The translations under genes were made by a program, and so were the position numbers. A DNA stretch of 64,000 nucleotides from a bacterium (GTDB taxonomy: Bacteria > UBA10199 > 2-02-FULL-50-16 > JAJFLM01). The notes beneath the pieces are model-generated. The model saw only the letters and a list, made by a program, of their open reading frames with translations, had not been told where the DNA came from and searched no databases. The stretch lies in assembly GCA_965216315.1 (NCBI GenBank), contig CBDCFN010000016.1:1736378-1800377 (forward strand), in the 5' to 3' direction. Below, one piece after another: positions 4,231 through 64,000 of the stretch (the stretch's first letter is position 1; the number at the start of each line of letters is the position of its first letter).

Positions 4231-5340
4231 TTAGGAACCTCCATCTCCATTAGAAGTACTGTCCGGCGGACTGACTAATTCGACGGAAAACGTTGAAGCC
4301 GTATTTCCGTCGAGATCGGTACAGCCGCTACAAAATTGATAAGAACTTGCATCAAAGCCCTGGCCGACATCAAAAATCATATAGCTCTCCCCGCCGGTCA
4401 ACAGCATAAGCTGCTCATTTTTAATGAATCCAGGGGTAGGAACAAACTCACCGGGCTCCGGGTTTTCCGGAACATCTTCCGGCTGCCAAAACTCAGGAAG
4501 TCCACTATTGGAGTACAAACTAAACACCGACACATCCTGAGGATTGTCAAGGTCCGCCGGCTGGGCACCACCAATCGTATTCCGGCAATGCAGAATCAAC
4601 TCGCCCAGGGCTAAGTCGTAGGCCCCAACACAGGAGTAAACCAGACCAATCGGAATCAAGGGGTTTTCAGCCGTATCAATGCCGCAAAAATTAAGCCCGG
4701 GGACGGGATAACCATACTCATTAAAGCCACTGTAGTTGGTTTCATAACCGAGATTACAGATGCTATCCCCATGTTCGCGTAACTGCATCACGGAATTAGC
4801 AATATTCGTCCAGGATAGATCCGGTGACGTTTGAAAATCGGCCGGACGATTGGTCCACTGCCCGATCCCTCTAAAATAGGCAACAGAGGCAGGATCCGCT
4901 GTCTGCACCATCGCCACAAGGTCTGGATCCAGGGCGCTGACGTCATCCGCAGAAATATTTTCACCCGTCCGTGTGACGGTTAAATAACTACTCGTATTCA
5001 ACGAAGGGTTACCGTTAAAGACGTGCTCATTCGCAGTCAAACGGAGATGAATATGCGGTGGCAATTGAGGAACGCCATCTCCTTCTTCGGCGAGACAATC
5101 GGCCAGGTCTTCTCCTTCGAGCCCTTCGCAGGGGTCCTCATCGCTCGGATCAGGAACGATCGGATCTTGCGGCGGTCGTCCGCCACCATCCGGCCCGCCT
5201 AGCTCATCACCATCGCCACCGCAACCACTCAACAGGGCTACTGTCGTGAGCGCAATCGGCGCAATCGTCAATCTTGCCATCGTTCCCATCGCATTCATGA
5301 CCGGGGCAAGCGTCGTCGCTAGTGGTGCTAAGAATGACAT
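4231..5340 (-). CDS. Hypothetical acidic lipoprotein (369 aa)
   Basis: Signal peptide ...ALTTVALLSGC with lipobox LSGC. Its start overlaps the stop of the upstream 1428-aa gene (TAATG), indicating translational coupling. Confidence 0.7.
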   Translation of the reverse strand: MSFLAPLATTLAPVMNAMGTMARLTIAPIALTTVALLSGCGGDGDELGGPDGGGRPPQDPIVPDPSDEDPCEGLEGEDLADCLAEEGDGVPQLPPHIHLRLTANEHVFNGNPSLNTSSYLTVTRTGENISADDVSALDPDLVAMVQTADPASVAYFRGIGQWTNRPADFQTSPDLSWTNIANSVMQLREHGDSICNLGYETNYSGFNEYGYPVPGLNFCGIDTAENPLIPIGLVYSCVGAYDLALGELILHCRNTIGGAQPADLDNPQDVSVFSLYSNSGLPEFWQPEDVPENPEPGEFVPTPGFIKNEQLMLLTGGESYMIFDVGQGFDASSYQFCSGCTDLDGNTASTFSVELVSPPDSTSNGDGGS

Positions 5341-13794: not shown

Positions 13795-13951
13795 CAGCAA
13801 CCTCGCTTTGAGGGCTCTAAGCCCTGCCGCATCTATCGTCAATTGATTTCGATTGTTGCTAACGCGAGGCGTCAATTCAAACAAAATAAAATGAACATTT
13901 TCAAAAACTTGCGAAAACTCTGCTTGCCTCCTGGCCGGTGTATTTGACATC

Positions 13952-14419
13952 TTGAGAAGCATGACAGTCGAGCATTCCGGACCCCACAAAAAGCCCAAGA
14001 TCAGCCTCGTCGAGGTGATGGTTGCCGTCGCCATTATCGGAACGGCAGCCTCGCTCGCCGTTCCCCGCTACATGAAAGATATGAAAGCCGAACGGCAAGC
14101 GGAATGCCCCCGCGAACTCAATAAAATAGTCGCGGCTCAACAGGCTTTTTTTCAAGCCCATCAGCGCTATAGCGCTAATTTAGCTGACCTTGACTGGAAG
14201 CCCCCGGCTAAAGCCGTTTATCTCTATGGCTTTCACAATGGATCGGTGTCCAAGACAGATAATCCGGAGCTCAGCGCCGACAAACTGCCGAAAACAACGC
14301 TTTCGCCACAACATTTCATCATCGGCTGTATCGGCAATCTCGATACCGATCCGGAACTAGATATTTTTACCATCGATGAGCAAGCAAAGCTCGTCCACCT
14401 CCACAACGACCGGCAATAA
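13952..14419 (+). CDS. Type IV pilin-like or pseudopilin-like protein with a non-canonical prepilin leader
   Basis: KISLVEVMVAVAIIG-TAASLAVPRY aligns with GFTLIELMIVVAIIG-ILAAIAIPxY of type IV pilins (Glu at +5 present), but position -1 is Lys rather than Gly. Divergent from the large operon. Confidence 0.6.
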   Translation: MRSMTVEHSGPHKKPKISLVEVMVAVAIIGTAASLAVPRYMKDMKAERQAECPRELNKIVAAQQAFFQAHQRYSANLADLDWKPPAKAVYLYGFHNGSVSKTDNPELSADKLPKTTLSPQHFIIGCIGNLDTDPELDIFTIDEQAKLVHLHNDRQ

Positions 14420-43845: not shown

Positions 43846-45030
43846 GTGTCGATACTGGGCGGCACTATGTCGATCAATCCCGGTTTACTCATGCCGCGTG
43901 TGGCCCTCGTCCTCCCTGGAGATGCGATGTGGGGCGCCTTCCAAACAGCCTTTTCTATCGAACTTGCTGGGCAATTGGAAGGGCTCGGTTATGGGGCACA
44001 ACCCTTCGACTTAACCGTGGGGAGCTCGTCCGGTAGCCTCGTCGCAACCGTTGCGGCCGCGGGAACCAACATCGATCACGACCTTGCCCACGATAGCTGG
44101 GTCTCGTTTGCACAGCGCACAAACCGCAAGCGCGTTGTCATCCAACGAGCCTTGCGAGGAAAGTTTGCCCCTCCTCACCGCGAGGCCATGGCCGAAATTT
44201 TTTCAAGTGGACTCATTGACACCGCGGCAGCTTTTGCCAGCCGCAGCACCGTCGTCGTCTCGGCCAGCTACTTTGATAAGCACCGGACCCTTGAATCAAC
44301 AGGCCTGAGCGCTGCGGCTCTGCTGGATAGCCTGCGTCACCTGTTAAATAGACATCATTCACGCGGAACAGCGGAATTAAGCGATCGATTCGTTCGACTC
44401 ATCGAGACAAGCGCGGAAATATTTTCGCCACGCTACTTTACTAGTAAAAGTTGGAGGGATCACACTGAGGAACAATTACCGGCGCAATGGAACATACTGC
44501 GCGATAAAGATGAATTCCTTCAAGCCGTCATGGCGTCATCCTTAGTTCCTTATCTCTATGGCAAGCCCGAAGACGTTCTGGGAGAAACACTTATTGATGG
44601 CGTATTTTCGGACAACGCTCCCGTGGAATTAGCGTTCCTTTTTGGAGCCACGCACGTCTTTGTCGTCAATAGCAGCCGTAAAGGCAATGTGTTTCCACGA
44701 CCCGTGCAAAGTCTCATCCGCCGCGGACTCTTCAAGGCTATTCAAACATCACCGCGTCTTGCTGAAAGGCTGCCCTTGGAACCTGCCGCTCCACTGGACA
44801 TTAAAGCGCTGGAGCAACGCTATCCGGGCCAGCACATCCATGTTATTTCCCCAAAGAAAGCCCCTTCGGTAAACCGTTTTTTTGCCCGACCGGAGACAGT
44901 CTCTCATATCTACGCATTGGGGCGTCAAGCGGCCCATGATATCAGGCACTTACTGCCGCCCCCCCTCCACAACTTCAGGTCGAGCCACGCTAGCAACAAA
45001 TCTCATCGCAATACGATAGACGCTGCATGA
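43846..45030 (+). CDS. Patatin-like phospholipase paralogue 1 (394 aa) with a degenerate oxyanion motif
   Basis: GxSxG nucleophile elbow VGSSSGS; catalytic DG motif DGVFSDNAPV. PGDAMWG replaces GGGxR/K. C-terminal extension of about 130 aa. Confidence 0.7.
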   Translation: MSILGGTMSINPGLLMPRVALVLPGDAMWGAFQTAFSIELAGQLEGLGYGAQPFDLTVGSSSGSLVATVAAAGTNIDHDLAHDSWVSFAQRTNRKRVVIQRALRGKFAPPHREAMAEIFSSGLIDTAAAFASRSTVVVSASYFDKHRTLESTGLSAAALLDSLRHLLNRHHSRGTAELSDRFVRLIETSAEIFSPRYFTSKSWRDHTEEQLPAQWNILRDKDEFLQAVMASSLVPYLYGKPEDVLGETLIDGVFSDNAPVELAFLFGATHVFVVNSSRKGNVFPRPVQSLIRRGLFKAIQTSPRLAERLPLEPAAPLDIKALEQRYPGQHIHVISPKKAPSVNRFFARPETVSHIYALGRQAAHDIRHLLPPPLHNFRSSHASNKSHRNTIDAA

Positions 45031-46178
45031 GCATAGCCGTAGTGATCCAGGGTGAGGCCATCTGGGGGGCATTCTCCCATGGGGCCCTGAATCAATTGAC
45101 CCAACACCTTCAAGCCGCCGGCCATGACGAAACGCCGTATCAATTAGCCGTCGGCAGTTCGACCGGCAGCCTTCTGGCCGCCATTGCATCACTTCCTCCT
45201 CACGCTCACGAAGAAACCCGCGCAGCTTGGATGGCGCTGGGTCGAGCCGGTACCGGCGTGCGCTCGCTAGGACGACGTCTACTACAGCGCAATTTTAGCA
45301 ATCCGCATGAAGCGGCACTACAATATATCATCGAGCATCAACTTCCCAGTGGTCGACAGCTCGTCAACATCAATGATGTTCTGACTAGTGACACTCTTTC
45401 GGTCATTGTCACCAGTGATTTTGAACTCACACAATTTCTAGACGCCACCGAAGCCGCCTTCAATCTAGTTGAACACGGTCTGCACCGTTTTCTTAAGAGT
45501 GACGAAACTCTCTCACCTGAAAGAATGAGCCACCTACTTCACACAAGTGCGAATCTGTTTGCGCCGCGTTACTTCGCCACGGGACCCTGGCCCGTAACCC
45601 ATGCAGACGACGAACCGGAACAATGGCAAATCATGCGAGATGAAGCCGAAGTACGAACGGCAATTGCGGGATCGACCCGTATCCCCCTCTTCTTCGGAGG
45701 CCCTGTCGGCCTTGGCAATAGTCGCCTCTTTGATGGGGCCTTTGCGGACAACGTCCCCGTCGAGCTAGCACTGCGTTATGGAGCCGAAGATGTCTTTATC
45801 ATTACAAGCAGCCACCGAGGCAATATCTATGAGCGCCCGGCACAGAGTATGCTGCAGCGACAAATACGGAATGCCTTAGGCGTCTCCGGTGCCCTCGCGG
45901 ACTTCCTGACTTCGTCGGAGCGAACCCGTGGCCTTGGCGAACGCTTGGGTCATCTGGGCGAACTGTGGAATGAGATCCCTAAGCCGCGTCCTTTGGACCT
46001 TGATGCCCTCCGCAGCGCCTACCCGAATCAGCGCATTCATGTCATCCACCCGCCGCGCAACACTCCGGGAGTCATGCGCTTTGGCGAGTGGCGCCCTGAA
46101 ATCATTGGCGAGCTTTATGACCTAGGTACTCAAGCGACTGATCTACATGAAGACGCCATTATCTCGACTTCTTATTGA
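45027..46178 (+). CDS. Patatin-like phospholipase paralogue 2 (383 aa)
   Basis: VGSSTGS and DGAFADNVPV, same architecture as paralogue 1. ATGA overlap with the paralogue 1 stop. Confidence 0.7.
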   Translation: MSIAVVIQGEAIWGAFSHGALNQLTQHLQAAGHDETPYQLAVGSSTGSLLAAIASLPPHAHEETRAAWMALGRAGTGVRSLGRRLLQRNFSNPHEAALQYIIEHQLPSGRQLVNINDVLTSDTLSVIVTSDFELTQFLDATEAAFNLVEHGLHRFLKSDETLSPERMSHLLHTSANLFAPRYFATGPWPVTHADDEPEQWQIMRDEAEVRTAIAGSTRIPLFFGGPVGLGNSRLFDGAFADNVPVELALRYGAEDVFIITSSHRGNIYERPAQSMLQRQIRNALGVSGALADFLTSSERTRGLGERLGHLGELWNEIPKPRPLDLDALRSAYPNQRIHVIHPPRNTPGVMRFGEWRPEIIGELYDLGTQATDLHEDAIISTSY

Positions 46179-52062: not shown

Positions 52063-53550
52063 ATGAACTTTAAACTCTCCACTACCAAGATCGAACAAAG
52101 CTCCGCTGCGTTGCTTGTTGTTGGCTCCGATGCCGCCGCTCCAAAGACCGGCTCTTCACTCGACCGTATCGACAAAAAATTGGGGGGTTCGCTCCGCAAA
52201 ATTTTAAAAAACGAGGGGTTTAAGGGGAAAAATAGCGAATCTAAATTTGTTCATAGTCACGGCCCTTTAAAAGCTAATGCGGTTCTCGTCATTGGGTTGA
52301 CCTACAAAGATGATGGCGACCTGCCGATGCATCCGCTCGAACAGCTCCGTCAGGCTGCCGCTGCTGCCGCACGACTCGCCAATCAAAAGAAATGTAAATC
52401 GGTCGCTTTTGACCTGAGTGCCTGGTCGGATCGCACTATTGATGAGGCGGATCAGGTTCAGGCCGTCGTGGAAGGCATGGAACTCGCGGTTTACCGATTT
52501 GAAAAGTATCTGAAATCTCAAAAGGTCGCCGTTCAATCAGTTGACATCTTTGGAGCTCACTCCAATACGGCCAATCGTCAAGCTATTACGCGGGGGCAAG
52601 CAATCGCAGAGGGGACAAAACTTGCACGCGATCTGGTCAATACCCCGGCCTGCGACATGACGCCTAAACGCATTGCCCAGGAGTCGCGGCGTATCAGAGG
52701 CATTAATTGCCGCGTATACAATCGATCTGAAATTGCGCGGCTTAAAATGAATTCTTTTCTTTCTGTTTCCTTGGGAAGTGAACAACCACCGGCACTCATT
52801 CATATGACCTATCGTCCGCGCAGCCGGACGAAGAAATCGATTGCTATCGTAGGCAAAGGCGTCACGTTTGACAGCGGGGGTCTTTCCATTAAACCAGCCG
52901 TTTCAATGGAGACGATGAAAGATGACATGGCTGGTGCGGCCGCCGTCGTGGGTCTCATGGCGACGTTGTCCAAATTGAAACCGGACTGCACAGTCCATGG
53001 GATTATCGCCGCCACCGAAAATATGCCCTCGGGGAATGCCGTCAAACCCGGCGACGTTGTTAGGGCGATGAATGGCAAAACGATTGAAGTTCTTAACACG
53101 GACGCCGAGGGACGCCTCACGCTGGCGGACGCTATTCATTTTGTGCTCCAGAAAAAACCGGACCTTGTCATTGATATGGCCACCCTTACGGGAGCGTGTC
53201 TTGTCGCTTTAGGTGAGCGCGTCTCCGGTATCATGGGTAATGATGATGAGTTAATCGACAGTCTCATTGAAACAGGTGATGCCGCGGGAGAGCTCATGTG
53301 GCAATTACCCCTCATCAACGAATATGCCGACCAGATTAAAAGTTCGATTGCGGATGTAAAAAATATTGGCGGACGTTGGGGCGGCACCATCACCGCAGGT
53401 CTTTTTCTCAAACAATTTGTCGATGATACCCCCTGGGCCCATATCGACATCGCCGGGCCTTCTTGGACCGACAAACCGCTGCCCTATGCCCCGCGGGGTG
53501 GGACCGGTTGTCTCGTCAACACCCTCACCCGCTTCATCCTAGATTACTGA
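52063..53550 (+). CDS. pepA: Leucyl aminopeptidase (M17)
   Basis: M17 signature NTDAEGRLTLADA. N-terminus MNFKLSTTKIEQSSAALLVVG matches PepA. Start moved from the track GTG at 52030. Confidence 0.92.
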   Translation: MNFKLSTTKIEQSSAALLVVGSDAAAPKTGSSLDRIDKKLGGSLRKILKNEGFKGKNSESKFVHSHGPLKANAVLVIGLTYKDDGDLPMHPLEQLRQAAAAAARLANQKKCKSVAFDLSAWSDRTIDEADQVQAVVEGMELAVYRFEKYLKSQKVAVQSVDIFGAHSNTANRQAITRGQAIAEGTKLARDLVNTPACDMTPKRIAQESRRIRGINCRVYNRSEIARLKMNSFLSVSLGSEQPPALIHMTYRPRSRTKKSIAIVGKGVTFDSGGLSIKPAVSMETMKDDMAGAAAVVGLMATLSKLKPDCTVHGIIAATENMPSGNAVKPGDVVRAMNGKTIEVLNTDAEGRLTLADAIHFVLQKKPDLVIDMATLTGACLVALGERVSGIMGNDDELIDSLIETGDAAGELMWQLPLINEYADQIKSSIADVKNIGGRWGGTITAGLFLKQFVDDTPWAHIDIAGPSWTDKPLPYAPRGGTGCLVNTLTRFILDY

Positions 53551-53799
53551 CCGCACTTCGAGAATGACACATCTGCGGTGTTGAGTTCACTGCAAATTAT
53601 TACCGGCTCTCAAATCAAGTGAAATAGCACCTCTGCCGATTGTGCAGCCAAAAAACCCTTGAGCCACAAGGCTTTCGCAAGATGGGCCTGAACGGTTTTT
53701 TTTGACACAGCGCATCCCTACCCAACTCCCTGATTTCATAAAAGCATTGCCATTCTTGCCCGAGATCCTTCGACACGCCACGTCATTTACCAACACGGC

Positions 53800-53828
53800 T
53801 TGACACACTACATATTGTGGCTCTAAAT
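53800..53828 (+). promoter_or_regulatory. Candidate sigma-70 promoter of nrdJ (TTGACA - 17 nt - CTAAAT)
   Basis: Perfect -35 hexamer at 53800-53805 and a -10-like hexamer at 53823-53828. A second TATAAT lies at 53884-53889. Confidence 0.45.
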
Positions 53829-53852
53829 GGCGCATACCACAATATGATGTAT
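53805..53852 (+). promoter_or_regulatory. Tandem NrdR boxes (NrdR operator) upstream of nrdJ
   Basis: ACACTACATATTGTGG (53805-53820) and CCACAATATGATGTAT (53837-53852) match the 16-bp NrdR consensus acaCwAtATaTwGtgt (14/16 and about 11/16). They sit 32 bp apart and overlap the -35/-10 region. Confidence 0.65.
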
Positions 53853-53915
53853 CAACAGCTTATCGACAGGCTGTAAACAAGTTATAATATAAACATTAAT
53901 CTGAGGGGGTTTTTC

Positions 53916-56852
53916 ATGGGCAATACGGCGATCGCACGGACAAAAGTCACTAAAGCAGGGAGCACAGCGCGCAAAAAGACCCAACCCAAACTTAAACGCG
54001 CGGGCCTGGCGATCTCACGCCATTTCACCGTCGAGGGACAGGATCCCCTCGATCAAGTGACGTGGACCCAACGGGATGCGGTCATTACGGAACCCGATGG
54101 GACGGTTGTCTTCGAACTCAAAGACGCCGAAATCCCTGAGAGCTGGTCCCAGCTGGCGACGGATATCGCGACAGCCAAGTACTTCCGCAAAGCCGGAGTT
54201 CCTGACGCCAGTCGCGGAGCTCCTGGCACCTCGGGCGTCGGAGACGCTGAACCGACGGGACGTGAGACCAGCGTTCGCCAGCTAGTCTATCGCGTAGCCC
54301 ATACCCTGCGCGTCTCCGGCGAAGACCAAGGTTACTTTGATGGAGCCGAATCCGCTCAGGCCTTCGAAGATGAATTGACCCATCTCCTCGTGAATCAAAT
54401 GGGCGCCTTTAATTCACCGGTCTGGTTTAACTGCGGGCTCTATCACCAATATGGAATCGTCGGCTCGGCAGGCAATTGGTATTGGGATACCAAGAAAGGG
54501 GCGCTCACGCCGCTCGACAACTCCTATGCGCAACCGCAATGCTCGGCCTGTTTTATTCAGAATGTCGATGACGATCTGATGAGTCTGTTTGATCTCGCCA
54601 AGAACGAGGCGCGGCTCTTCAAATATGGTTCCGGAACCGGAACCAATTTTTCGTCGATTCGTGGACGTCAGGAAAAACTCTCCGGTGGTGGCACCTCATC
54701 GGGACTGATGAGTTTCCTCGAAGTCCTCGATAAAGGGGCCGGAGCCACGAAGTCGGGTGGAACCACGCGCCGCGCAGCCAAGATGGTCTGCCTCGATATG
54801 GACCACCCCGAAATTGCTGACTTCATTACTTGGAAAGAAAAAGAAGAAGACAAGGCCAAGCATCTCATCGCCGCCGGTTATGATGCGGACTTCAACGGCG
54901 AGGCCTATCACACCGTATCCGGACAAAACTCGAATAATTCGGTCCGTATTACCGACGAGTTTATGGAGGCCTATCTCAATGACGGCGAATGGCAAACAAC
55001 CATGCGCACCACTGGTGAAGTCTGCGACACTTACAAGGCCCGCGACTTGATGAAGATGATCGCCCGCGCCGCCTGGTCTTGTGCCGACCCCGGAGTACAA
55101 TACGACACGACGATTAATGATTGGCATACCTGTGCGGCGACCGACCGTATTCATGCCTCCAATCCCTGTTCCGAATATATGTTCTTGGATGATTCGGCCT
55201 GCAACCTCGCCTCGCTCAACTTGATGAAGTTCCGGCGTGCAGACGGTAGTTTCGATGTCGAGGCGTACAGGCACGCCAATCGCGTCTTTATTACGGCTCA
55301 AGAGATCATCGTCGACTTTGCCTCCTATCCGACTAGGACGATTGCACAAAACAGTCACGACTATCGCCCTTTAGGAATCGGTTATGCCAACCTGGGCACG
55401 CTGCTCATGACCAATGGCATCCCTTATGATTCCGACAAGGGACGCGCCTGGGCCGGCGCCATTACCGCCATTATGACAGGCGAATCGTATGCGACCTCCG
55501 CCGAAATCGCCGGGGTCACCGGACCTTTTCCGGGATTCAAACCCAACCGCGAATCGATGCTCAGGGTCATGAACAAGCACCGTGATGCGGTCCAAGATAT
55601 TGATGCCCGTTATTGCCCCCAAGAAATGTTGAGCGCCGCCCAAGATTGTTGGGATCGTGCCGTTGAAACGGGTGAAGAACACGGTTATCGCAATTCACAA
55701 ACTTCGGTGCTGGCTCCGACCGGCACGATCGGTCTGTTAATGGATTGTGACACAACCGGTGTCGAGCCTGAATTCTCGCTCGTTAAATATAAGAAGCTCG
55801 CCGGGGGCGGCTACTTCAAAATCATTAACCAATCGGTGCCACTGGCCTTGCAGCACCTGGGTTACAATGAAGATGAAATCAAAACGATCAATGACTATGT
55901 CCTCGAGACCGGCAAGATCGAAGGCGCGCCCGGGCTCAAAGAAGAGGATCTGCCTGTCTTTGATACCGCCAACCGTAATGGCGATGGTCAACGCTTCATC
56001 GACCCGATGGGGCATATCAAAATGATGGCGGCCACCCAGCCTTTCTTGTCGGGCGCGATTTCCAAAACCATCAACATCCCCAACGAAGCCGGCATTGAGG
56101 ATATCGAAAAACTCTACGTCGAATCATGGAAGCTTGGTTTAAAGGCGGTCGCCCTCTATCGCGATGGCTGCAAATCATCGCAGCCGCTCAATACGAGCTC
56201 GGATGAAGCCGTTGAAGAGGAAGAAGCTAAAGAAGCCCGCGGTGATCGTGAGTCCCTCCCCTTGCGGCGCAAAGGTTTCACGGTCGAGTCCAGTGTCCGC
56301 GGCCATAAAATCTTTCTGCGTACGGGTGAATATAACGACGGCCGTCTCGGTGAGATTTTCATCGATATGTACAAAGAAGGTGCCGCCTATCGCAGCTTGG
56401 TCAACTGCTTTGCAATCGCCGTCTCGATCGGCCTGCAATACGGCGTGCCTCTCGAAAAATTCGTGAACAGCTTTACCTTTACGCGTTTCGAACCTCAGGG
56501 CATGACGGATCACCCGAATATTAAGATCTCGACGTCGATCATCGACTTTGTCTTCCGCGTCTTGGGCATGGAGTACCTCGGCCGCACCGATTTTCTCCAT
56601 TTAAAACCCAAGACGGTTGATGAAATAGATACCCAGGAAAAAGCCGAACGGGCGATGCTTGAAACCAGTTCGACTGCCGCTTCGGCCGCCCAACCGGTCA
56701 TTGAAGATGACATCACGCCAGGTGGGATGGGGGATCATCTCGCGGACATGATGGGCGATGCCCCGGCCTGTGACAGTTGCGGGCACATCACGGTGCGCAA
56801 CGGCGCCTGTTATAAATGCCTCAACTGCGGCAACTCAATGGGTTGCAGTTAA
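53916..56852 (+). CDS. nrdJ: Class II (adenosylcobalamin-dependent) ribonucleotide reductase with a C-terminal Cys4 zinc ribbon
   Basis: RNR catalytic core (ten-stranded barrel motifs, PCSEY, ...NLASLNL...) in a single 978-aa chain. C-terminal CDSCG...CYKCLNCG. Confidence 0.9.
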
Positions 56853-56898
56853 AGATTTAGGGACAATGGGGAACGTGAATGGGAGAAAAAACTTCCCC

Positions 56899-56948
56899 GC
56901 CTCCCTCGACTGGCTGGAGGGTTCTAGTCGGGGGAGGTTAAATTTTTT
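56899..56948. terminator. Bidirectional intrinsic terminator between nrdJ and higA
   Basis: 11-bp stem (GCCTCCCTCGAC / GTCGGGGGAGG) with a 16-nt loop, flanked by TTAAATTTTTT on the plus strand and a U-run on the minus strand. Confidence 0.55.
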
Positions 56949-57255
56949 ACGCCACCCGCTTCCCCTCCCGGTCCACAAACGCGACGCAGATATCGACCTT
57001 CAGCGCGTCACACGCGCGGAGAATCCACTTCATCGAGGTATTCTTACCGGAAAATTTTTCATAGACCGCTTGGCGCGAGATATTCATGCGCCGGGCCAGC
57101 TCATTCATGCTGACTCCTTTTTCAGTCATAACCGCACCTAATCCGACAAGTATATCCTTGAAACGAATAAAATTCTGATCTTCAGGATCATTCGCGTCGA
57201 GACCTAGCAAGTCGACTACGGATATTTTTCGTGGCTCTTTAGATATTTTTTCCAC
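56947..57255 (-). CDS. higA: XRE-family HTH antitoxin (HigA-like)
   Basis: HTH SMNELARRMNISRQAVYEKFSG. GTG start. Lies downstream of and overlapping the toxin gene. Confidence 0.75.
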   Translation of the reverse strand: MEKISKEPRKISVVDLLGLDANDPEDQNFIRFKDILVGLGAVMTEKGVSMNELARRMNISRQAVYEKFSGKNTSMKWILRACDALKVDICVAFVDREGKRVA

Positions 57256-57623
57256 CTCTTTATTCCTCGATTAATGGCATGGCTGAGTTTGCCGCGACTC
57301 TTGTGCACGGCAGCAACGATAACCGTATTGTTATCGTCGATAATAAAAATAATGCGCCCGCCTTTACAAAGATCTCGTGCCTCCCAAACATCTCCATTTT
57401 TTGTCGTCACTTGGCGGTCGAGTTTCTTTATATATCCACACTTAATATACGGCGCTAACGACTTGGCTTGCTGTCGACACGACGCGACCATCGAGATCAC
57501 CCAAAAAAGATGTTTGCGCTCGGCCTTACTCAGTCCAAAGGCAACGGAATCTTTGAAGAGGACATTCTGACCCTCCTCTTCCAGGACCCAGAGGCCCTCT
57601 GCTATTTTGAGTATAGCGACCAT
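57216..57623 (-). CDS. higB: Gp49-like / HigB-family type II toxin (RelE/ParE superfamily)
   Basis: NGDVWEARDLCKGGRIIFIIDDNNTVIVAAVHKSRGKLSHAINRGIKRWKKYL matches the G.VWElR ... RI.F ... I.L..F.KK motifs of phage Gp49-like toxins. Toxin-first order is typical of higBA. Confidence 0.75.
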   Translation of the reverse strand: MVAILKIAEGLWVLEEEGQNVLFKDSVAFGLSKAERKHLFWVISMVASCRQQAKSLAPYIKCGYIKKLDRQVTTKNGDVWEARDLCKGGRIIFIIDDNNTVIVAAVHKSRGKLSHAINRGIKRWKKYLKSHEKYP

Positions 57624-57630
57624 AGGCTCC

Positions 57631-57673
57631 CAATGTAAAGATATATCTTACGGTAAGTTATTTCCTTACATTG
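57631..57673. promoter_or_regulatory. Nested palindrome directly upstream of higB (putative HigA operator)
   Basis: CAATGTAAAG ... CCTTACATTG outer arms (57631-57640 and 57664-57673) enclosing CTTAC-G-GTAAG (57647-57657) and an ATATAT stretch. Lies 8 nt from the higB start codon. Confidence 0.55.
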
Positions 57674-57870
57674 ACCGTGTTGCTGATCGGCGCGACGCAT
57701 CCTCCAGTTAAGAGCAAATGAGGTGCCAATAATATTTACTTAAATTGCAAAGGTTTACGATTACAGACTTCAGACGACCGTCTCATTCTGGGACACCATG
57801 AGACTCACATCGCTATACTCTCCCCATGCGCTTCGCCATTGAACGAATTAGGTCGCGTCTCCAAAAACAC

Positions 57871-57972
57871 TTAATCCCTCATGATCATAGAGGAGGTGCG
57901 GTGATCTCGATTGGCATCCCCATAGCGTACCTCGGTCACGGTCACGCCGGCTGACTGCTTTCCTTCCCCAAC
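57871..57972 (-). pseudogene. Truncated third copy of the FG-GAP-like paralogue motif, in frame after the stop of paralogue P1
   Basis: Minus-strand translation after P1 TAG: VGEGKQSAGVTVTEVRYGDANRDHRTSSMIMRD*. nt 57903-57951 are about 90% identical to 58064-58112 inside P1. Confidence 0.6.
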
Positions 57973-58467
57973 CTACATCGCGGGGGCCATGGCACGTCCC
58001 CCGCCACGCTGCTGATAGAGTAGCGCGGCCCCATTGGAAAGCCGGACCAGGATATCCGTACGGCGATCTCTATTGACATCCCCGTAGCGTACCTCGCTCA
58101 CGGTCACACCGGCCGGCAGACTCCTCAGGAGTCCATCGCGTGTCGCCGCGGAAGCAAGGTCTTCATCCACCTCACTCTGAGCCGCTTCACAACTATTCCG
58201 GCCACAGCGTTCCCAACCGACAAATATGACCGGCCAAGAACTCCGTCCTGCCAGCGTCATGCTGCGATACCCCGTTTCCAAGCGAAAAAAAGAACTGACG
58301 CGCGAACGGCCCGTCCCTAAAGGAATTTGCGCCTCGACCTGCGTGACGGGACCCTGCGGCGAATCTCCAGTCGTTAGTTGAACTTGATGACTCAATCGAC
58401 CTTGATCGATCAAGTATTGTGCTCGCTCCGCAGAAATCTCTGTAGCATGAAACCGAACCCTACTCAT
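57973..58467 (-). CDS. Hypothetical protein P1 (164 aa), paralogue of P2; single FG-GAP-like Ca-loop motif
   Basis: About 50% identical to P2 over about 155 aa. CGRNSC Cys pair. GVTVSEVRYGDVNRDRRTDILVRLSNGAALL. No signal peptide seen. Confidence 0.65.
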   Translation of the reverse strand: MSRVRFHATEISAERAQYLIDQGRLSHQVQLTTGDSPQGPVTQVEAQIPLGTGRSRVSSFFRLETGYRSMTLAGRSSWPVIFVGWERCGRNSCEAAQSEVDEDLASAATRDGLLRSLPAGVTVSEVRYGDVNRDRRTDILVRLSNGAALLYQQRGGGRAMAPAM

Positions 58468-58511
58468 GACGTATCTCCTTCTCGCACCAAATGATGAATC
58501 GATTTATTTTT

Positions 58512-59420
58512 TTATGGCCGCCGACCCCGCACCCGAATCGTCTCAATGGTGCGGAAGTTTTGCCCATCGGTCGAAACCTCAATAGGAATGGTATGAATCC
58601 GACCGTCCGCAGTCTCGACGAGATCGCGACCTTGTTGAGCCAATGTAATATGATTGGACCCGGCAGTCACCTCGAAGCGCCTCACTCGGGGTGGCACCCC
58701 GGCACGGACATAGAGGGTTCCCGCGCGCTCGGCCTGAACTGAAAGTCTCACGCTATCCCGATAGTAATAATTGACTGGAATACCGGCAACGCGCACTTGA
58801 ACATTTCCGGCAGAATTATTGGCTGGAGGACGCGCGCCGGGTCCCGTCTGTTTCTCTGCACGTGACTCATTGAATGGGTTATCGAGATCATCTTGGGGCA
58901 CATCCACCCCCAACCTATTTCCTGGACTTAGTCGCCATCTTTGAGGGCGAAGCAAATCCCTTGGGTTCTGTCTCAACAGATGAGCCGCGCCATTAGAAAA
59001 TCTGACGAGGATATCCGTTAAACCATCATCATTCGCATCTCCATAGCGAACATCGGTGACGGTCACACCTTGAGGAAGACTGCTTATATGTTCATCATTA
59101 ATCGAGGTCTCGATCCTCGCCTCATCGACGATGCGACGTGCGGATTCACAGCTTCCCGTCCCGCAGGGTAACCAACCCGTAAACAGAATCGGCCAAGACA
59201 CCTGGCCACTAAAAGTCTGAGCTCGATAACCTAGTTCAAGTCGAAAGTAAGAAAGTTGCCCTTGGTTTCGCAGAGGTATCTGGCCTCCCACATAGAACGT
59301 CCGCCCTTGGGGCGTGTCTTGCGTATTGAGAATGAGTTGCTGATTAAAATGACCCTGATCGATCAGACGTTGGGCGCGGTCTGACGATATTTCAACAGTA
59401 CGGTACGGTATCGTGCTCAT
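58512..59420 (-). CDS. Hypothetical protein P2 (302 aa), paralogue of P1 with an extra C-terminal domain
   Basis: CGTGSC; GVTVTDVRYGDANDDGLTDILVRFSNGAAHLL (FG-GAP-like). The C-terminal 150 aa has no recognisable family. Confidence 0.65.
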   Translation of the reverse strand: MSTIPYRTVEISSDRAQRLIDQGHFNQQLILNTQDTPQGRTFYVGGQIPLRNQGQLSYFRLELGYRAQTFSGQVSWPILFTGWLPCGTGSCESARRIVDEARIETSINDEHISSLPQGVTVTDVRYGDANDDGLTDILVRFSNGAAHLLRQNPRDLLRPQRWRLSPGNRLGVDVPQDDLDNPFNESRAEKQTGPGARPPANNSAGNVQVRVAGIPVNYYYRDSVRLSVQAERAGTLYVRAGVPPRVRRFEVTAGSNHITLAQQGRDLVETADGRIHTIPIEVSTDGQNFRTIETIRVRGRRP

Positions 59421-59565
59421 AACGAGCCTCCTAGCCGCACCAGTTGTTCATATCAGATGCTTTTTACATCGACGCGCAGCCCCATATGTTGCGTGAAAAG
59501 CATTCTCCCCTTTCTTAAAATGACATAATTTGTTACCTATTTTCGGCAAAGAACAGAGCATCGCT

Positions 59566-60027
59566 ATGACCAACCCCTACGACCAGATTATCAAGGACAT
59601 CGACCGCAAGCCCTCCTTCAAACGACGTTGGACCGTACGCCTGATATTCGGCGGGTTCATCGCGCTGATGATCGCGGGTCCGGGAGTCGCGGCATTTCCG
59701 AGCCTCATCAAACTGACGCAACCTTTACTCTGCTCGAACGGTGAGATTATCACTCAAAAACATCATCTCGGCTCGGGAACAACTCGAGAATTTACCATCG
59801 CTGTTCATTGTCTAAAACCAAACGGAGAAAAATCTCCGGTCGGGACCTTTATCTCCATTGTTACCTTATTCGCGCTCTTACTCTTCCCCTGTATGATCGG
59901 CATCGCTTTCCTTGGGCAAGTCTGGAAATGGCATATGATCCGCAAATACGGCCCCAACTACAAAGAACAACTCCGCCGTTCGGCACAGGCCCGCCGGCAA
60001 CGTTACGCAGAGCGGCAACGCTCTTGA
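59566..60027 (+). CDS. Small two-TM membrane protein with a basic C-terminal tail, hypothetical
   Basis: Two hydrophobic helices (LIFGGFIALMIAG, IVTLFALLLFPCMIGIAFLG). C-terminal RRSAQARRQRYAERQRS. Start taken at ATG 59566. Confidence 0.5.
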   Translation: MTNPYDQIIKDIDRKPSFKRRWTVRLIFGGFIALMIAGPGVAAFPSLIKLTQPLLCSNGEIITQKHHLGSGTTREFTIAVHCLKPNGEKSPVGTFISIVTLFALLLFPCMIGIAFLGQVWKWHMIRKYGPNYKEQLRRSAQARRQRYAERQRS

Positions 60028-60033
60028 TAGCTT

Positions 60034-60963
60034 TTATTGTGATGGCGGCTCGGAATGAGGCGAAGGATTGTCGTAGAAATTCCCTTGATAAATGAGCATG
60101 CGGGGCAAGGGGTAGTCCTTGTGTGGAATTAATTTAGTGACCCGTTCATGTAACTCCATGACACCATACTCATTGAGGGCTTCAAAAATCCGCACAACAC
60201 TCTCAATCGCAAAATTCGTCCCGGGCAACACAAAGAGACGTCTCGAATGAAGGATCTCAAAACTTTCTTTCAAAGACCGAACCAGTTGCGGCACCGGGGT
60301 CTCAGCCGTCACATGGGCAACATAATGTTTTTTGAGTAAGTCATCGACTATGATAAGTGCAGACGCTGAACCTAAACTCTCAACCGCTAACGCTTCACCA
60401 AAACCGGCGAGTATCATCTCGCCGGCAGTAACGAATTGATGGGGCGTATTCGACCGTGGCGCGGTAATTTGAAGCGTCATCGGCCATGCCTCAGAAATCA
60501 AGTTAGTCGCGAGTTTACGTAAGTGCCGAGTGGTCATGCGCTGCGCCGTCGGCTCGCGCGCGGGCAACTCAGGAATGCGCTCTAAAGGTTCCATTACCTT
60601 GCCTATCCAGGAAGGGTGTCGCCGCCGCGGTGGCAACTTGTTCTCACCTTCTTCCGGAGACGGCACTTGGCCGGTGATCTGCTGAATCAACGTATCAAGC
60701 CGCCGCACGCCAACATTCAAACCCTGAGGCTTGGCAATCAATTTGCGAATATCCTGCGTCGTCGGCCATACGGGAATCTTGTCGGGTTCGAGGCTGTCAA
60801 TAACTTGCAAGGCCTCGTCCATCGTGCCCCGTAGCTCAGTTTCTCTATCCGTCGCTTGAGACTGCTCTTGGATTTGTGTCCAGAGAGCCGTTAAATGTAT
60901 GATGGACGCCGGCCCGGCCGCGCATAGCGACATGGACCCCAGCCCCAACCCATGAAATAGCAT
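60034..60963 (-). CDS. Hypothetical protein (309 aa), no recognisable family
   Basis: Long ORF convergent with the preceding gene (7 nt apart). Mixed alpha/beta composition, no TM segment or signal peptide. Confidence 0.5.
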   Translation of the reverse strand: MLFHGLGLGSMSLCAAGPASIIHLTALWTQIQEQSQATDRETELRGTMDEALQVIDSLEPDKIPVWPTTQDIRKLIAKPQGLNVGVRRLDTLIQQITGQVPSPEEGENKLPPRRRHPSWIGKVMEPLERIPELPAREPTAQRMTTRHLRKLATNLISEAWPMTLQITAPRSNTPHQFVTAGEMILAGFGEALAVESLGSASALIIVDDLLKKHYVAHVTAETPVPQLVRSLKESFEILHSRRLFVLPGTNFAIESVVRIFEALNEYGVMELHERVTKLIPHKDYPLPRMLIYQGNFYDNPSPHSEPPSQ

Positions 60964-61033
60964 AATTCCCCTATCGACGCAGGTTCCAATAAGTTGCGTT
61001 GTGAATTTCCGTTTATTTTGCTACTAGATACGC

Positions 61034-61504
61034 ATGGACGACGCTTCAGAACGGGCCCGGATACAGCTTCATGAGATCTTTCGGGATGCCGACGGCAACG
61101 GCATCCCGGACATACTCGAGGGCAAATTGCGCGGAGAAGACCTCCGCAATCTCGTCAGCTCCCAGTCTAATACCGTCAAGGTATTCGTCGGCGGCAAAGA
61201 GTATTCGAACCTCAATGAGCTGCCCAGCGATAAGAGACAGCAGATCGAACACAGCCTGGATCAATTGGCGCGCATATCGACCCAAGCCGGCAACGTTCTG
61301 AAGGGATTCGGCCTCTTCAAACTCATCAAGTGGTTTACCAAAAAGAAAGGGGCCGACTCGCAAAGGCTTTATACGACCGCATCTACCCCGCAAAACCCAC
61401 CATCTTACCAGGTCGACGAACGCTCTTTTTTTGCTAAAAGCCTTCCTTTTTTGCTCGGAGCAGTCATTGTTGGGGCCTTGGCCTACTATCTCTTCGGGAA
61501 ATAG
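61034..61504 (+). CDS. Tail-anchored membrane protein with an N-terminal EF-hand-like loop
   Basis: DADGNGIPDILE fits the EF-hand loop (D1, D3, N5, G6, E12). C-terminal TM LPFLLGAVIVGALAYYLF. Confidence 0.5.
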   Translation: MDDASERARIQLHEIFRDADGNGIPDILEGKLRGEDLRNLVSSQSNTVKVFVGGKEYSNLNELPSDKRQQIEHSLDQLARISTQAGNVLKGFGLFKLIKWFTKKKGADSQRLYTTASTPQNPPSYQVDERSFFAKSLPFLLGAVIVGALAYYLFGK

Positions 61505-61694
61505 GCTTAAACCGCTAATCGAGCCCCCTAAAAAAATTCTTTCAAAATTTGGCTCTCTTCGCTAGTCTCCGCCAGGATTGTCGCCCGGTCGGCGGGTCCT
61601 GTCGCCTTCGCAATCCTTTGGCTGCGTCTACAGTGACGTTCCAAAGGATCGCTCGCGCCACCCGCCGCACGTTGTTAATTTATGAGGAGGGATC

Positions 61695-62339
61695 ATGAAG
61701 TTTATATTAATTGCGCTGACATTGGCTCTTGCGGGACCTGGTCTGATGGCCTGCAGCAAGTATAAGATGGTCAATGTGGAAGAGGATGAAAAGGCCAAGG
61801 CCGAGGAAGCTGAGAAGATGGCCATGGAATTAAAAGAGAAGATGGCAAAAGAAGCCGCCGAAAAGGAAGCCGCTGAAAAAGAGAAAGAGCGTGAAGAGCA
61901 GCTCAAAGAGCAAGAAGAGAAGATTAAAGAACTCGAAGAAAAACTCACTGAGCTTGACGAAAAGAAAGATGACAAGACCAAGGTTGTTGTCGTCCGCGAC
62001 AAGTCACCGAGTTCGAGTGGATCTTCAGATAAGCCTGCCGGCAAGCCCAAGGGTTGGGTCCGGCTCTATGACGACAAGGGCTTTACCGACCGCCAGCTGA
62101 CTATCGGCTTTGGCCGCAACATCGGCAATTTCCACAACATTAGTTCCGATGATGGTAAGTCTGGCTTTAATGATAAGGCGTCGGCCGTAAAATTCAACGT
62201 GCCGCCGGGATGGAAGGCTGTCCTCTATGAAAACAGCAACTATTCCAAACGCGCCTATCCTTTAAAGGGTCGCGGTGCCATTGCGGACCTGGGATACTTT
62301 GGCGACAAGGCCTCATCGATTCGCTGGGAAAGAAATTAA
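61695..62339 (+). CDS. Lipoprotein with a KE-rich coiled coil and a C-terminal beta-gamma-crystallin domain
   Basis: Lipobox LMACS. (K/E)-rich heptad region. Two Greek-key motifs: LYDDKGFTDRQLTIG ... NDKASAVKF and LYENSNYSKRAYPL ... GDKASSIRWE (compare Y-x-x-x-x-[FY]-x-G ... ND-x-x-SS-[IV]-R). Confidence 0.7.
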   Translation: MKFILIALTLALAGPGLMACSKYKMVNVEEDEKAKAEEAEKMAMELKEKMAKEAAEKEAAEKEKEREEQLKEQEEKIKELEEKLTELDEKKDDKTKVVVVRDKSPSSSGSSDKPAGKPKGWVRLYDDKGFTDRQLTIGFGRNIGNFHNISSDDGKSGFNDKASAVKFNVPPGWKAVLYENSNYSKRAYPLKGRGAIADLGYFGDKASSIRWERN

Positions 62340-62367
62340 AAAAATTAGGATAATTAAAATTAAAAAA

Positions 62368-62396
62368 CCCGTCAGCGAAAGCTGGCGGGTTTTTTT
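62368..62396 (+). terminator. Intrinsic terminator after the crystallin-domain lipoprotein gene
   Basis: CCCGUCAGC-GAAA-GCUGGCGGG, a 9-bp stem with one G-U pair and a GNRA loop, followed by UUUUUUU. Confidence 0.8.
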
Positions 62397-62797
62397 GTGA
62401 AGCGGAGTTGTTATTCGGATAAAAAGCTTAGCTGTGCCGTCCTCCACGTAGGTCGCTCAAGAAACCCGTGGCTTCTTCCTGGGTAAAATTCGTTGCAATC
62501 CGCTCATCCGTCGTTGGCGGGCTGGGGGTATGAGGATCTTGACCCTTCACAACGTGCTGCCCGTTCCGGGGCCGCCCAACAGGAACACTCGGGACGTTCT
62601 CTTGAAGCTTCGGATTATTGCTATTAATTGAGAGTCTAAATACCATAATTTCGTCCGTGCAGTAGTTATCGTCTCGGGTGGGGTATCGAGTTGCCAGGGA
62701 GTCAAAAAAAGCGACAGATCACTAGTTGAAATCGCTACCCATTTACCCTACAAAACCCAAATTAACACACTTTGAGGGGCCAACCAAGCCGCGAACT

Positions 62798-63445
62798 ATG
62801 CGAAAATTATCCAAACCCTGTTTTATCACCCTTGAAGGCGTCGAGGGCGCCGGAAAAAGCAGTCAAGTTGCTAATATTATTAAATATTTTGAGGACTCTG
62901 GCGATTCGATTCTCGCCACGCGAGAACCGGGTGGAACCTTGATTGCCGACGAGATCCGCCGGCTGCTCGTCGAATCCCACGATGAGCCCTTGGCTCCTCT
63001 CGCCGAGCTGCTCCTTTATAATGCCTCGCGCGTCCAGCACCTCCAACAGTGTATTCGACCTGCGCTCGCCGCCGGGTCTTCTGTGCTCTGCGATCGCTAC
63101 ACGGACGCGACGGTCGCTTATCAGTCCTATGGACGCCATCTATCCCTGGGAACGGTGACTCAGCTCAACGAATTGGCAACGGACGGTTTAACACCCGACT
63201 TGACCCTGCTCTTTGATTGCCCCCCGGAACTGGGGCTCGCAAGGTCCAAGTCCCGGCTTGCCGCTGAGGCCAGCCGCGAAGACCGCTTTGAAACCGAGGC
63301 TCTCGCCTTTCATGAGCGCGTCCGCGCGGGTTATCTGGAGATAGCCGCGCGACAGAAAGATAGAATGTTCATCATAGATGCAAGCCAAGATGCAACTGAA
63401 GTATGGGAACAGATTCAAAAAGTATTCACGGATAGAATTGAATAA
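62798..63445 (+). CDS. tmk: Thymidylate kinase
   Basis: P-loop FITLEGVEGAGKSSQ, DRY motif (CDRYTDAT), lid region. ATG 62798 preferred over the track TTG at 62726. Confidence 0.9.
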   Translation: MRKLSKPCFITLEGVEGAGKSSQVANIIKYFEDSGDSILATREPGGTLIADEIRRLLVESHDEPLAPLAELLLYNASRVQHLQQCIRPALAAGSSVLCDRYTDATVAYQSYGRHLSLGTVTQLNELATDGLTPDLTLLFDCPPELGLARSKSRLAAEASREDRFETEALAFHERVRAGYLEIAARQKDRMFIIDASQDATEVWEQIQKVFTDRIE

Positions 63446-63457
63446 TTCAGATGAAAT

Positions 63458-64000
63458 ATGAACGCACTCGATCAAATTCTCGGCCAAGAATCGGTCATTA
63501 AGGAACTGAAACACCGCCTGAACCATCAAACCTTGCGCGGGAGTTTTCTTTTTACGGGCCCTGACGGCGTTGGCAAAAAAACCACTGCCCTTGCCGTCGT
63601 GGAGTCATTATTTGGTAAAGAGCATGTCGACACTCACCCGGACCTTTTAATCCTGGAGCCCGATGAAAAGGACACCATCAAAATCGATGCGGCACGTGCG
63701 CTAATCCGGCGCATGAGCTTAAAACCAACACAAGCACCCTTCAATATCGCCATTATCGATCGCTGTGACTGCATGACAACAGAAGCCAGCAATGCCCTCC
63801 TTAAAACGATTGAAGAACCAAATGGATCGATATTCATGATAACAAGTCGCCCCGGTTCCCTCCTGCCAACCATACGTTCACGCTGCCAAGATATTCGATT
63901 TCGACCCCTTCCAAGCGATCTTATTGTCGATTTATTACACCGGTTAGAAAAATGGCCCCAGGCTGAATGCGAAGCGGCCGCCGCATTAGCCGATGGGTCA
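63458..64000 (+). CDS. holB: DNA polymerase III delta-prime subunit (partial; runs off the window)
   Basis: MNALDQILGQESVIKELKHRLNHQTLRGSFLFTGPDGVGKKT... AAA+ Walker A; ...TSRPGSLLPTIRSRCQ sensor motif. Canonical tmk-holB synteny. Not in the ORF track because there is no stop. Confidence 0.85.
   Translation, partial: MNALDQILGQESVIKELKHRLNHQTLRGSFLFTGPDGVGKKTTALAVVESLFGKEHVDTHPDLLILEPDEKDTIKIDAARALIRRMSLKPTQAPFNIAIIDRCDCMTTEASNALLKTIEEPNGSIFMITSRPGSLLPTIRSRCQDIRFRPLPSDLIVDLLHRLEKWPQAECEAAAALADGS

Follow-up and report, generated by a model that had tools for sequence, protein, structure and literature searches.

Here we describe a 64-kb stretch of bacterial DNA (hereafter the window), in which the interval between nrdJ and tmk-holB holds eight open reading frames (ORFs) on alternating strands, with a hairpin terminator at either end. 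We consider it probable, with a confidence somewhat better than even, that the region at ~56950-62395 is a lineage-specific accessory region in a permissive slot, and that its genes were gathered piecemeal and do not constitute one system. On its left the slot would be limited by the nrdJ terminator, and on its right by the tmk-holB(-metG) promoter region. It would hold a portable toxin-antitoxin (TA)-like cassette, an orphan gene that was duplicated locally, a pseudoenzyme with a CheD fold and three small proteins of the envelope. These make up at least five separate transcription units, which lie on alternating strands and were probably collected piecemeal. This reading is based on the comparison of the same interval in other genomes, on the ordinary composition of the region (hereafter the block) and on the scattered occurrence of the homologs of its genes. 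The features of the block and its flanks, listed below, agree with a first-pass annotation of this DNA as far as the ORF map is concerned, since the run of genes on alternating strands from nrdJ to tmk-holB is matched by the ORF list.

53916-56852: nrdJ, 978 aa, with pepA upstream
56899-56948, + strand: left terminator, a hairpin (56899-56938) plus a T-run, after the nrdJ stop codon
56947-57255, - strand: helix-turn-helix (HTH) protein of 102 aa, putative antitoxin and autorepressor, Pfam HTH_26
57216-57623, - strand: basic protein of 135 aa, putative toxin, the upstream gene of the pair
57631-57673, no strand assigned: inverted repeat, likely operator, just upstream of the 135-aa start, with the palindrome GTAAGATATATCTTAC
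57883-57951, - strand: fragment copy of a P1 segment, 23 aa / 56 nt
57973-58467, - strand: P1, 164 aa, paralog of the P2 N-terminal domain
58512-59420, - strand: P2, 302 aa
59530-60027, + strand: protein with two transmembrane (TM) segments according to hydropathy (the 2-TM protein)
60034-60963, - strand: P309, 309 aa, with a predicted C-terminal CheD/NTAN1-type (CNF1/YfiH-like) fold
61034-61504, + strand: tail-anchored protein, 156 aa, with a single C-terminal TM segment
61695-62339, + strand: lipoprotein with an LMAC lipobox
62362-62395, both strands: right terminator, bidirectional and intrinsic, the right boundary of the cargo
62396-62797, + strand: spacer upstream of tmk, ~400 bp
62798, most likely start: tmk, PF02223, E 1e-45
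Downstream of the nrdJ-tmk interval, with tmk: holB, PF13177, E 8e-36

Relatives of the window were sought by a scan for NrdJ over one genome per GTDB species (185,579 species genomes), in which the best NrdJ match has about 70% identity among the matches listed. Three of the loci found (L020, L024 and L025) share the genes upstream, namely those for a porin-like protein, a RidA-like protein and a 262-aa protein, as well as pepA. In L020 and L024, whose NrdJ is 68-70% identical, nrdJ is followed by 380-460 bp and then by tmk-holB-metG. In L025, nrdJ is followed by a convergent pair of ParE_toxin (24.3 bits, cut-off 23) and HTH_3 genes (12928-13537, - strand), beyond which unrelated ORFs extend up to the contig end. 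In a fourth locus (L015, NrdJ 62%), a gene for a 469-aa protein and two small overlapping ORFs are located between nrdJ and tmk (11618-13596, + strand); the small ORFs, of 72 and 70 aa, have no Pfam match and look TA-like by eye. The fillings of the slot in the window, L025 and L015 are mutually unrelated. The TA pair of the window was also tried as a relative of the ParE/HTH_3 pair of L025, and the sequence comparison shows no relationship. In addition, a Tmk scan of metagenomes returned relatives with 43-50% identity, with no nrdJ upstream in the DNA at hand. The comparison of the nrdJ-tmk interval that the first-pass annotation had suggested is thus informative up to a point: the block is absent in L020 and L024 and other cargo is present in L025 and L015, all four loci being distant (NrdJ 62-70%), and an insertion relative to distant relatives is supported.

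The same annotation had seen in the block the signature of horizontally acquired cargo, a reading that is supported only in part. The GC content of the block is 0.511 vs 0.509 for the window, its tetranucleotide distance from the window average has a z of -0.22 relative to all 6-kb windows, and the per-gene synonymous-codon log-likelihood z ranges from -2.1 (P1) to +2.1 (lipoprotein). That is, the deviation in GC and codon usage proposed as a check was not seen, and the composition matches the surrounding DNA. No tRNA (ARAGORN), no integrase or transposase (ORF list) and no meaningful flanking direct repeats (repeat search) were found in or around the block. When the eight block proteins were compared by tblastn with 72,556 plasmids and with 50,697 phage records, no match had E <= 0.01, and IMG/VR scans with the toxin and P2 profiles returned nothing. 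A defence role had also been proposed, for which PADLOC gives nothing meaningful, its output being noise-level HTH matches and coiled-coil matches (LmuB/TmtA) to the lipoprotein, in its low-complexity part. The HTH domain and this low-complexity coiled coil are also all that NCBIfam and PHROGs, like PADLOC, pick up. The homologs of P2, P309 and the toxin/HTH pair are located in unrelated neighbourhoods, and no other block protein occurs in those loci. Therefore, the block does not appear to have been acquired as one unit.

The boundaries of the block are sharp. Strong intrinsic terminators had been reported at both ends, and both indeed beat shuffled sequence in folding. The left hairpin, which sits between the convergent nrdJ and antitoxin genes and forms the left boundary of the cargo, has an RNA folding free energy of -33.3 kcal/mol (z -3.42), and none of 200 shuffles is as good. 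The right terminator has arms of 15 nt that are 93% complementary, and it is called bidirectional because both strands fold far better than shuffled sequence (z -5.75 for the + strand and -4.87 for the - strand). The two hairpins would insulate the cargo from the housekeeping genes at both sides. Between them, the ORFs tile the block with almost no overlap, and ribosome-binding sites precede most of them.

To the right of the block, the tmk start was put at 62798 because that exact product is present in the protein collection, so that the ~400 bp at 62396-62797 would belong to the conserved nrdJ-tmk spacing and lie outside the cargo. This spacer is comparable in size to the entire nrdJ-tmk spacer of L020 and L024. 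A short DNA block 5' of tmk (62665-62694, GTTATCG ... GAGTTGC) recurs in the nrdJ-tmk spacers of L020 and L024, and may serve the tmk-holB-metG unit as a promoter or in its regulation. A 72-aa ORF at 62428-62646 (- strand) had been aligned by eye to an ORF of L020, but no similarity was detected by BLASTP, and it was dropped as a conserved protein. Rfam over 53000-64000 gave nothing above noise, the sole matches being generic ones to the terminator.

The leftmost pair of genes in the block is the portable element among its contents. The HTH gene and the 135-aa gene, both on the - strand, share a 40-nt overlap, and the antitoxin candidate matches Pfam HTH_26 with 28.6 bits vs a cut-off of 22. 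A word-index search of 5.8 billion proteins identified two homologs of the 135-aa protein, with 55% and 45% identity. Both of them (in loci L086 and L087) precede an overlapping HTH_26 gene of ~100 aa, with overlaps of 34 and 58 nt, and the HTH protein of the window is 62-66% identical to these two partners. The pairs of L086 and L087 are located in unrelated neighbourhoods, one of which adjoins serC-serA-purA. The inverted repeat at 57631-57673 has 21-nt arms that are 86% complementary, and its palindrome core is kept at the same position in all three loci (GTAAGATATATCTTAC in the window, GTCAAGATATAACTTGAC in L086 and L087). The palindrome is likely to be the operator bound by the HTH partner, as judged from its position and conservation. 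Written as a consensus, the core is AAGATATA[TA]CTT, directly 5' of the 135-aa start codon (57631-57673 in the window, ~2465-2485 in L086 and ~1045-1065 in L087). A σ70-like site at 57639-57610 (- strand) was considered as the promoter and rejected, its -10 hexamer (TATACT) being inside the conserved codons 5-7 of the 135-aa ORF. The same codon-embedded -10 is present in both homolog loci; it could belong to an internal promoter, or coding conservation could produce it by coincidence.

As for the toxin, Gp49 (PF05973) is the sole Pfam family matched by all three 135-aa members, in each case below the threshold (best E 0.014); the window protein scores 12.9 bits vs a cut-off of 23.9. At default thresholds the 135-aa protein belongs to no family, and the PDB sequence-profile search, NCBIfam and PHROGs gave nothing for it. 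Comparison by hhalign with the ParE sequence of L025 also gave no match. The cassette is most likely a type II TA module with the gene order of HigBA. Its 135-aa toxin, which would be an mRNA interferase with a Gp49/RelE fold that has diverged very far, would be neutralised by the HTH protein, and this protein would also bind to the palindrome and repress its own operon. What is observed is the pair of genes with their overlap and palindrome, all conserved together; toxicity, neutralisation and the RelE fold are what we infer. Consequently, of the higBA-like pair of the first-pass annotation, the portable two-gene cassette stands (gene order, overlap, HTH_26 and a palindrome in three loci), with the family of the toxin left below the threshold.

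The second group of genes consists of P2, P1 and a fragment. P1 and residues 1-151 of P2 share 51% identity over 154 aa (E 1e-49), so that the two proteins, described earlier as FG-GAP-like paralogs, are paralogs indeed. The FG-GAP part of that description is less secure, the FG-GAP_3 matches of P1 and P2 being limited to one repeat each, with 15.7 and 14.4 bits vs a cut-off of 26.9. A beta-propeller was not seen in the AlphaFold2 (AF2) model of P2, which is a poor one built from three sequences (predicted local distance difference test, pLDDT, 43.7; C-terminal strands 52-73), and neither Foldseek nor PDB searches gave a significant match for the fold of P2. The truncated third copy was also confirmed, though it is tiny (56 nt / 23 aa). 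Located directly after the P1 stop codon and in frame, the fragment at 57883-57951 encodes AGVTVTEVRYGDANRDHRT; its 56 nt are 88% identical to 58058-58113 in the FG-GAP-like segment of P1, and tblastn gives 70% over 23 aa (E 5e-6). The P2-P1 operon would stem from local duplication and truncation, which would also have left the 23-aa fragment.

In P2, an orphan N-terminal domain, which carries a single FG-GAP-like DxDxDG loop, is connected by a disordered linker to a beta-rich C-terminal domain; P2 has no export signal. The loop is intact in P2 (DANDDG) and degenerate in P1 (DVNRDRR); P1 is preceded by a good ribosome-binding site. By the word-index search, one non-self homolog of P2 was found, with 69% identity, on a 1.6-kb Logan contig. 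It should be noted that the search missed the 51%-identical paralog P1, and the homolog count of P2 is therefore a lower bound. The neighbours on that contig, a Mut7-C-like gene (named from sequence motifs alone) and a membrane protein gene, are unlike those in the window. The ratio of nonsynonymous to synonymous substitution rates (dN/dS) is 0.145 for P2 vs the Logan homolog, and ~0.2 for P1 vs the same homolog with dS near saturation. Judged by the value of 0.145, P2 is a real gene under purifying selection.

The duplication bears on the question of whether the block was inserted at all. The block could instead be ancestral, fast-evolving chromosomal DNA of a deep lineage, lost or replaced in L020, L024, L025 and L015, with ORFs that look like orphans owing to sparse sampling. 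The local series from P2 to P1 to the fragment indicates long residence, and the composition is identical to that of the surrounding genome. All 10 window proteins tested, NrdJ and Tmk included, are singletons at 90% identity among ~15 billion proteins, and the source organism appears to belong to a very poorly sampled lineage. However, at this site none of the eight genes is found in any of the four relatives, syntenic or semi-syntenic, and their mutually unrelated fillings are explained more simply as independent gains; the homologs of the TA cassette, moreover, are found at other loci. We regard the ancestral origin as unlikely, although it retains an appreciable share of the probability.

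P309 had been described as a protein of no family. This description no longer holds, since a CheD/NTAN1-like fold was found by means of the family profile, AF2 modelling and Foldseek. An exhaustive HMMER search of 1.84 billion representatives gave eight remote homologs, the best with 30% identity (E 5.6e-19) and the others matching residues ~160-300. The homolog alignment displays the family motif L-A-T-x-G-x-x-T-C-S-A-L-(x)-D-...-H-Y-L-A-H-V. No member of the family matches Pfam CheD, and the only PDB match of the family profile is CheD of T. maritima (2f9z, E 0.72, not significant alone), in the alignment with which the Thr, Cys and His columns of the P309 family coincide with the CheD sequence. 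The AF2 model of P309 has a pLDDT of 72 overall and of 88-96 in residues 180-290, that is, in the C-terminal domain. When this model was compared with the PDB by Foldseek, 2f9z_C (CheD) came top (E 1.5e-5, probability 1.0, template modelling score relative to the target 0.56), followed by NTAN1 (6a0f, E 4.5e-5 to 3e-4) and then by YfiH and CNF1. The C-terminal domain of P309 is accordingly modelled as the alpha-beta-beta sandwich fold of CNF1/YfiH-like hydrolases.

The catalytic triads of NTAN1 (Cys75/His92/Ser69) and CheD (Cys27/His44/Thr21) have an identical -6/0/+17 spacing, and the C75A mutation abolishes the activity of NTAN1 (PMC7022378). At the triad columns, P309 has Val194 (Thr), Ala200 (Cys) and His217 (His, +17). 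In P0011, the homolog nearest to P309, Leu and Glu occupy the Thr and Cys columns, while the other seven of the eight homologs keep Thr and Cys. Two Cys-bearing homologs, P0013 (L084, GC 0.28) and P0015, are found on very AT-rich contigs. Within its rare CheD/NTAN1-like family, P309 is probably a pseudoenzyme without catalytic activity, because the Cys nucleophile and the Thr are both lost; it would serve as a binder or regulator instead of a deamidase. The neighbourhoods of the P309 homologs have nothing in common with the window. A search of the viral structure library (BFVD) with the P309 model returned giant-virus proteins, one of them annotated as CheD, and the family may extend from bacteria to giant viruses or protists.

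The remaining three ORFs encode putative envelope proteins. For the 2-TM protein, the two TM segments announced by the first-pass annotation are clearly visible as hydropathy peaks at residues 38-60 and 110-128, followed by a basic C-terminal tail. Its real start is probably the ATG at 59566; the TTG-start form is absent from the protein collection. No match was found for it in the family libraries (Pfam, NCBIfam, PADLOC and PHROGs). The tail-anchored protein has a single TM segment at residues 132-155, no N-terminal signal and a near-canonical EF-hand/DxDxDG loop, DADGNGIPDILE. Compared with the 12-residue loop of an EF-hand helix-loop-helix, D-x-[DNS]-x-[DNS]-G-x-[ILV]-x-x-x-E, this loop fits at positions 1, 3, 5, 6, 9 and 12, and has a Pro at position 8. 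Hence, in the earlier wording of a tail-anchored EF-hand-like protein, the C-terminal anchor and the loop are borne out, whereas the assignment to the EF-hand family is tentative, with no match to Pfam EF-hand, to another family or to the PDB.

The lipoprotein begins with a hydrophobic segment (residues 3-21) ending in the LMAC lipobox. After this signal peptide come a coiled-coil region rich in E and K, a linker rich in Ser and, last, one divergent βγ-crystallin-like domain. Its C-terminal 102 aa match Myxococcus Protein S (1prr) in the PDB with an E-value of 6.8e-4 by phmmer, and gamma-crystallins weakly. The crystallin domain claimed earlier is thus retained on the weak match to Protein S, with Pfam Crystall undetected at E <= 0.1. 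Two half-repeats can be recognised, ending in NDKASAVKF and GDKASSIRW. Microbial βγ-crystallins have the Ca motif N/D-N/D-x-x-S/T-S per Greek-key pair. The versions of this site in the lipoprotein, NDKASA and GDKASS, each have one position that deviates from it.

Both of the Ca-binding-type motifs that had been quoted, in P2 and in the tail-anchored protein, are present. In the six-frame translation of the 64 kb, the pattern D-x-[DN]-x-[DN]-G-x-x-[DE] occurs four times, once in P2, once in the tail-anchored protein and twice in an upstream 1428-aa ORF. The concentration of DxDxDG-type motifs in the block is suggestive, the numbers being small. The 2-TM protein, the tail-anchored protein and the lipoprotein would then be three envelope proteins that, as far as motifs can tell, may be Ca-responsive structural or accessory components. 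In the 1428-aa ORF (5340-9626, - strand), the two DxDxDG-type loops (DFDKDGLLD and DNDNDGICD) are adjacent, and this ORF adjoins a second giant one, of 1440 aa, at 9712-14034.

With all the contents described, the idea that the block is a single horizontally acquired genomic or defence island, inserted as a unit and carrying cargo for Ca-dependent envelope remodelling or against phages, can be weighed. TA pairs are often found in defence islands. The block does contain a TA-like pair, as well as an enrichment of DxDxDG-type motifs, and it has sharp terminator boundaries and is absent at the syntenic site of L020 and L024. However, an island of this kind is opposed by the undeviating composition and codon usage, by the failure to find an integrase, transposase, tRNA or flanking repeat, by the noise-level PADLOC output and the negative plasmid, phage (tblastn) and IMG/VR searches, and by the homologs of the individual genes, which never co-occur. 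Acquisition as one island is thus improbable.

A bolder idea takes the non-TA genes as one undescribed Ca2+-responsive envelope module, with an EF-hand-like sensor, P309 as its cytoplasmic partner, the 2-TM protein, the lipoprotein and P1/P2, held in place by the TA cassette, and takes P309 with its eight homologs as a new CNF1/YfiH-like branch; we mention it as a speculation with very little chance of being right. At the bottom of the scale, scarcely credible, is the view that the 2-TM, tail-anchored, P1 and 72-aa ORFs are spurious and the block is largely decaying non-coding DNA around a TA module. This view draws on the 2-TM, tail-anchored and lipoprotein ORFs having no homologs in the family libraries or by plasmid/phage tblastn, on the weak or missing ribosome-binding sites at the tail-anchored and TTG-start 2-TM ORFs, on P1 being a truncated copy followed by a fragment and on the non-conserved 72-aa ORF at 62428-62646, but is opposed by the tiling of ORFs with almost no overlap, by genome-typical codon usage, by coherent features such as clean TM segments and the combination of a lipobox and a crystallin repeat, by dN well below dS in P2 and P1, and by the confident folding of P309 to a known domain.

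Several points nevertheless weigh against the reading that we prefer, an accessory region assembled piecemeal in a permissive slot. The relatives that set the polarity are distant (NrdJ 62-70% and Tmk 39-46% identity), and the genes may have been lost in their lineages. No relative exceeds ~70% NrdJ identity among the matches listed, and closer ones may be missed. The toxin assignment, below the Pfam threshold and with no backing from PDB profiles, NCBIfam, PHROGs or hhalign, is unproven. Where the 2-TM, tail-anchored and lipoprotein ORFs are called lineage-specific, the term refers to the family libraries and the plasmid/phage tblastn only. Ca binding, finally, is suggested at the level of motifs alone.

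Taken in this way, an apparent defence or horizontal gene transfer island would turn out to be an accessory slot of an ordinary kind, in a bacterial lineage that is poorly sampled. The nrdJ-tmk spacer would be recurrently filled in several deep-branching lineages, with a TA-type pair in both the window and L025, and would provide a simple example of a variable slot without recognisable integration machinery. Two of its contents may be of wider use. The cassette of 135-aa and HTH_26 genes, in front of which the palindrome is conserved, could represent a TA family not yet classified. The rare CheD/NTAN1-fold family has Cys-less members, which, if they are pseudoenzymes, could reveal non-catalytic uses of the fold. 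Elsewhere in the window, at 43846-46178 (+ strand), there is a tandem pair of genes for patatin-like phospholipases (PF01734), with alpha/beta hydrolases and a pseudouridine synthase after them.

The slot and its contents can be compared with several known systems. As in genomic-island hotspots, conserved core flanks enclose cargo that differs by lineage, differing TA pairs included. Unlike in such hotspots, the slot of the window has no integrase, tRNA, att-like repeats or compositional signal, and the genomes compared here are very distant ones and not strains.

Like Protein S of Myxococcus xanthus, the C-terminus of the lipoprotein has two Greek-key-like half-repeats, with ends of the form [ND]DKAS[AS][VI][KR][FW]. 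In contrast to microbial βγ-crystallins, the lipoprotein has just one domain, joined to a lipoprotein signal and to a long coiled coil rich in E and K, and neither half keeps the Gly of the Y/FxxxxF/YxG signature.

P309 differs from CheD/NTAN1 in having Val194 and Ala200 and an extra N-terminal helical region of ~170 aa, and in the rarity of its family, with 8 representatives in 1.84 billion; unlike in the case of CheD, no chemotaxis genes adjoin it. With CheD/NTAN1 it shares the predicted fold over residues ~170-300, and the family motif T-x5-C-x16-H has the exact spacing of the triad.

Compared with typical Gp49/HigB toxins, the window toxin is longer (135 aa) and below the Pfam cut-off, with no PDB, NCBIfam or PHROG relative and two homologs in the word-index search. 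In its organisation, the cassette resembles HigBA modules, which consist of a Gp49/RelE-superfamily toxin and an XRE/HTH antitoxin: the toxin gene comes first and the HTH gene second, the two are small and overlapping, a palindrome is located at the 5' end of the operon, and the pair shifts as a unit among genomic contexts.

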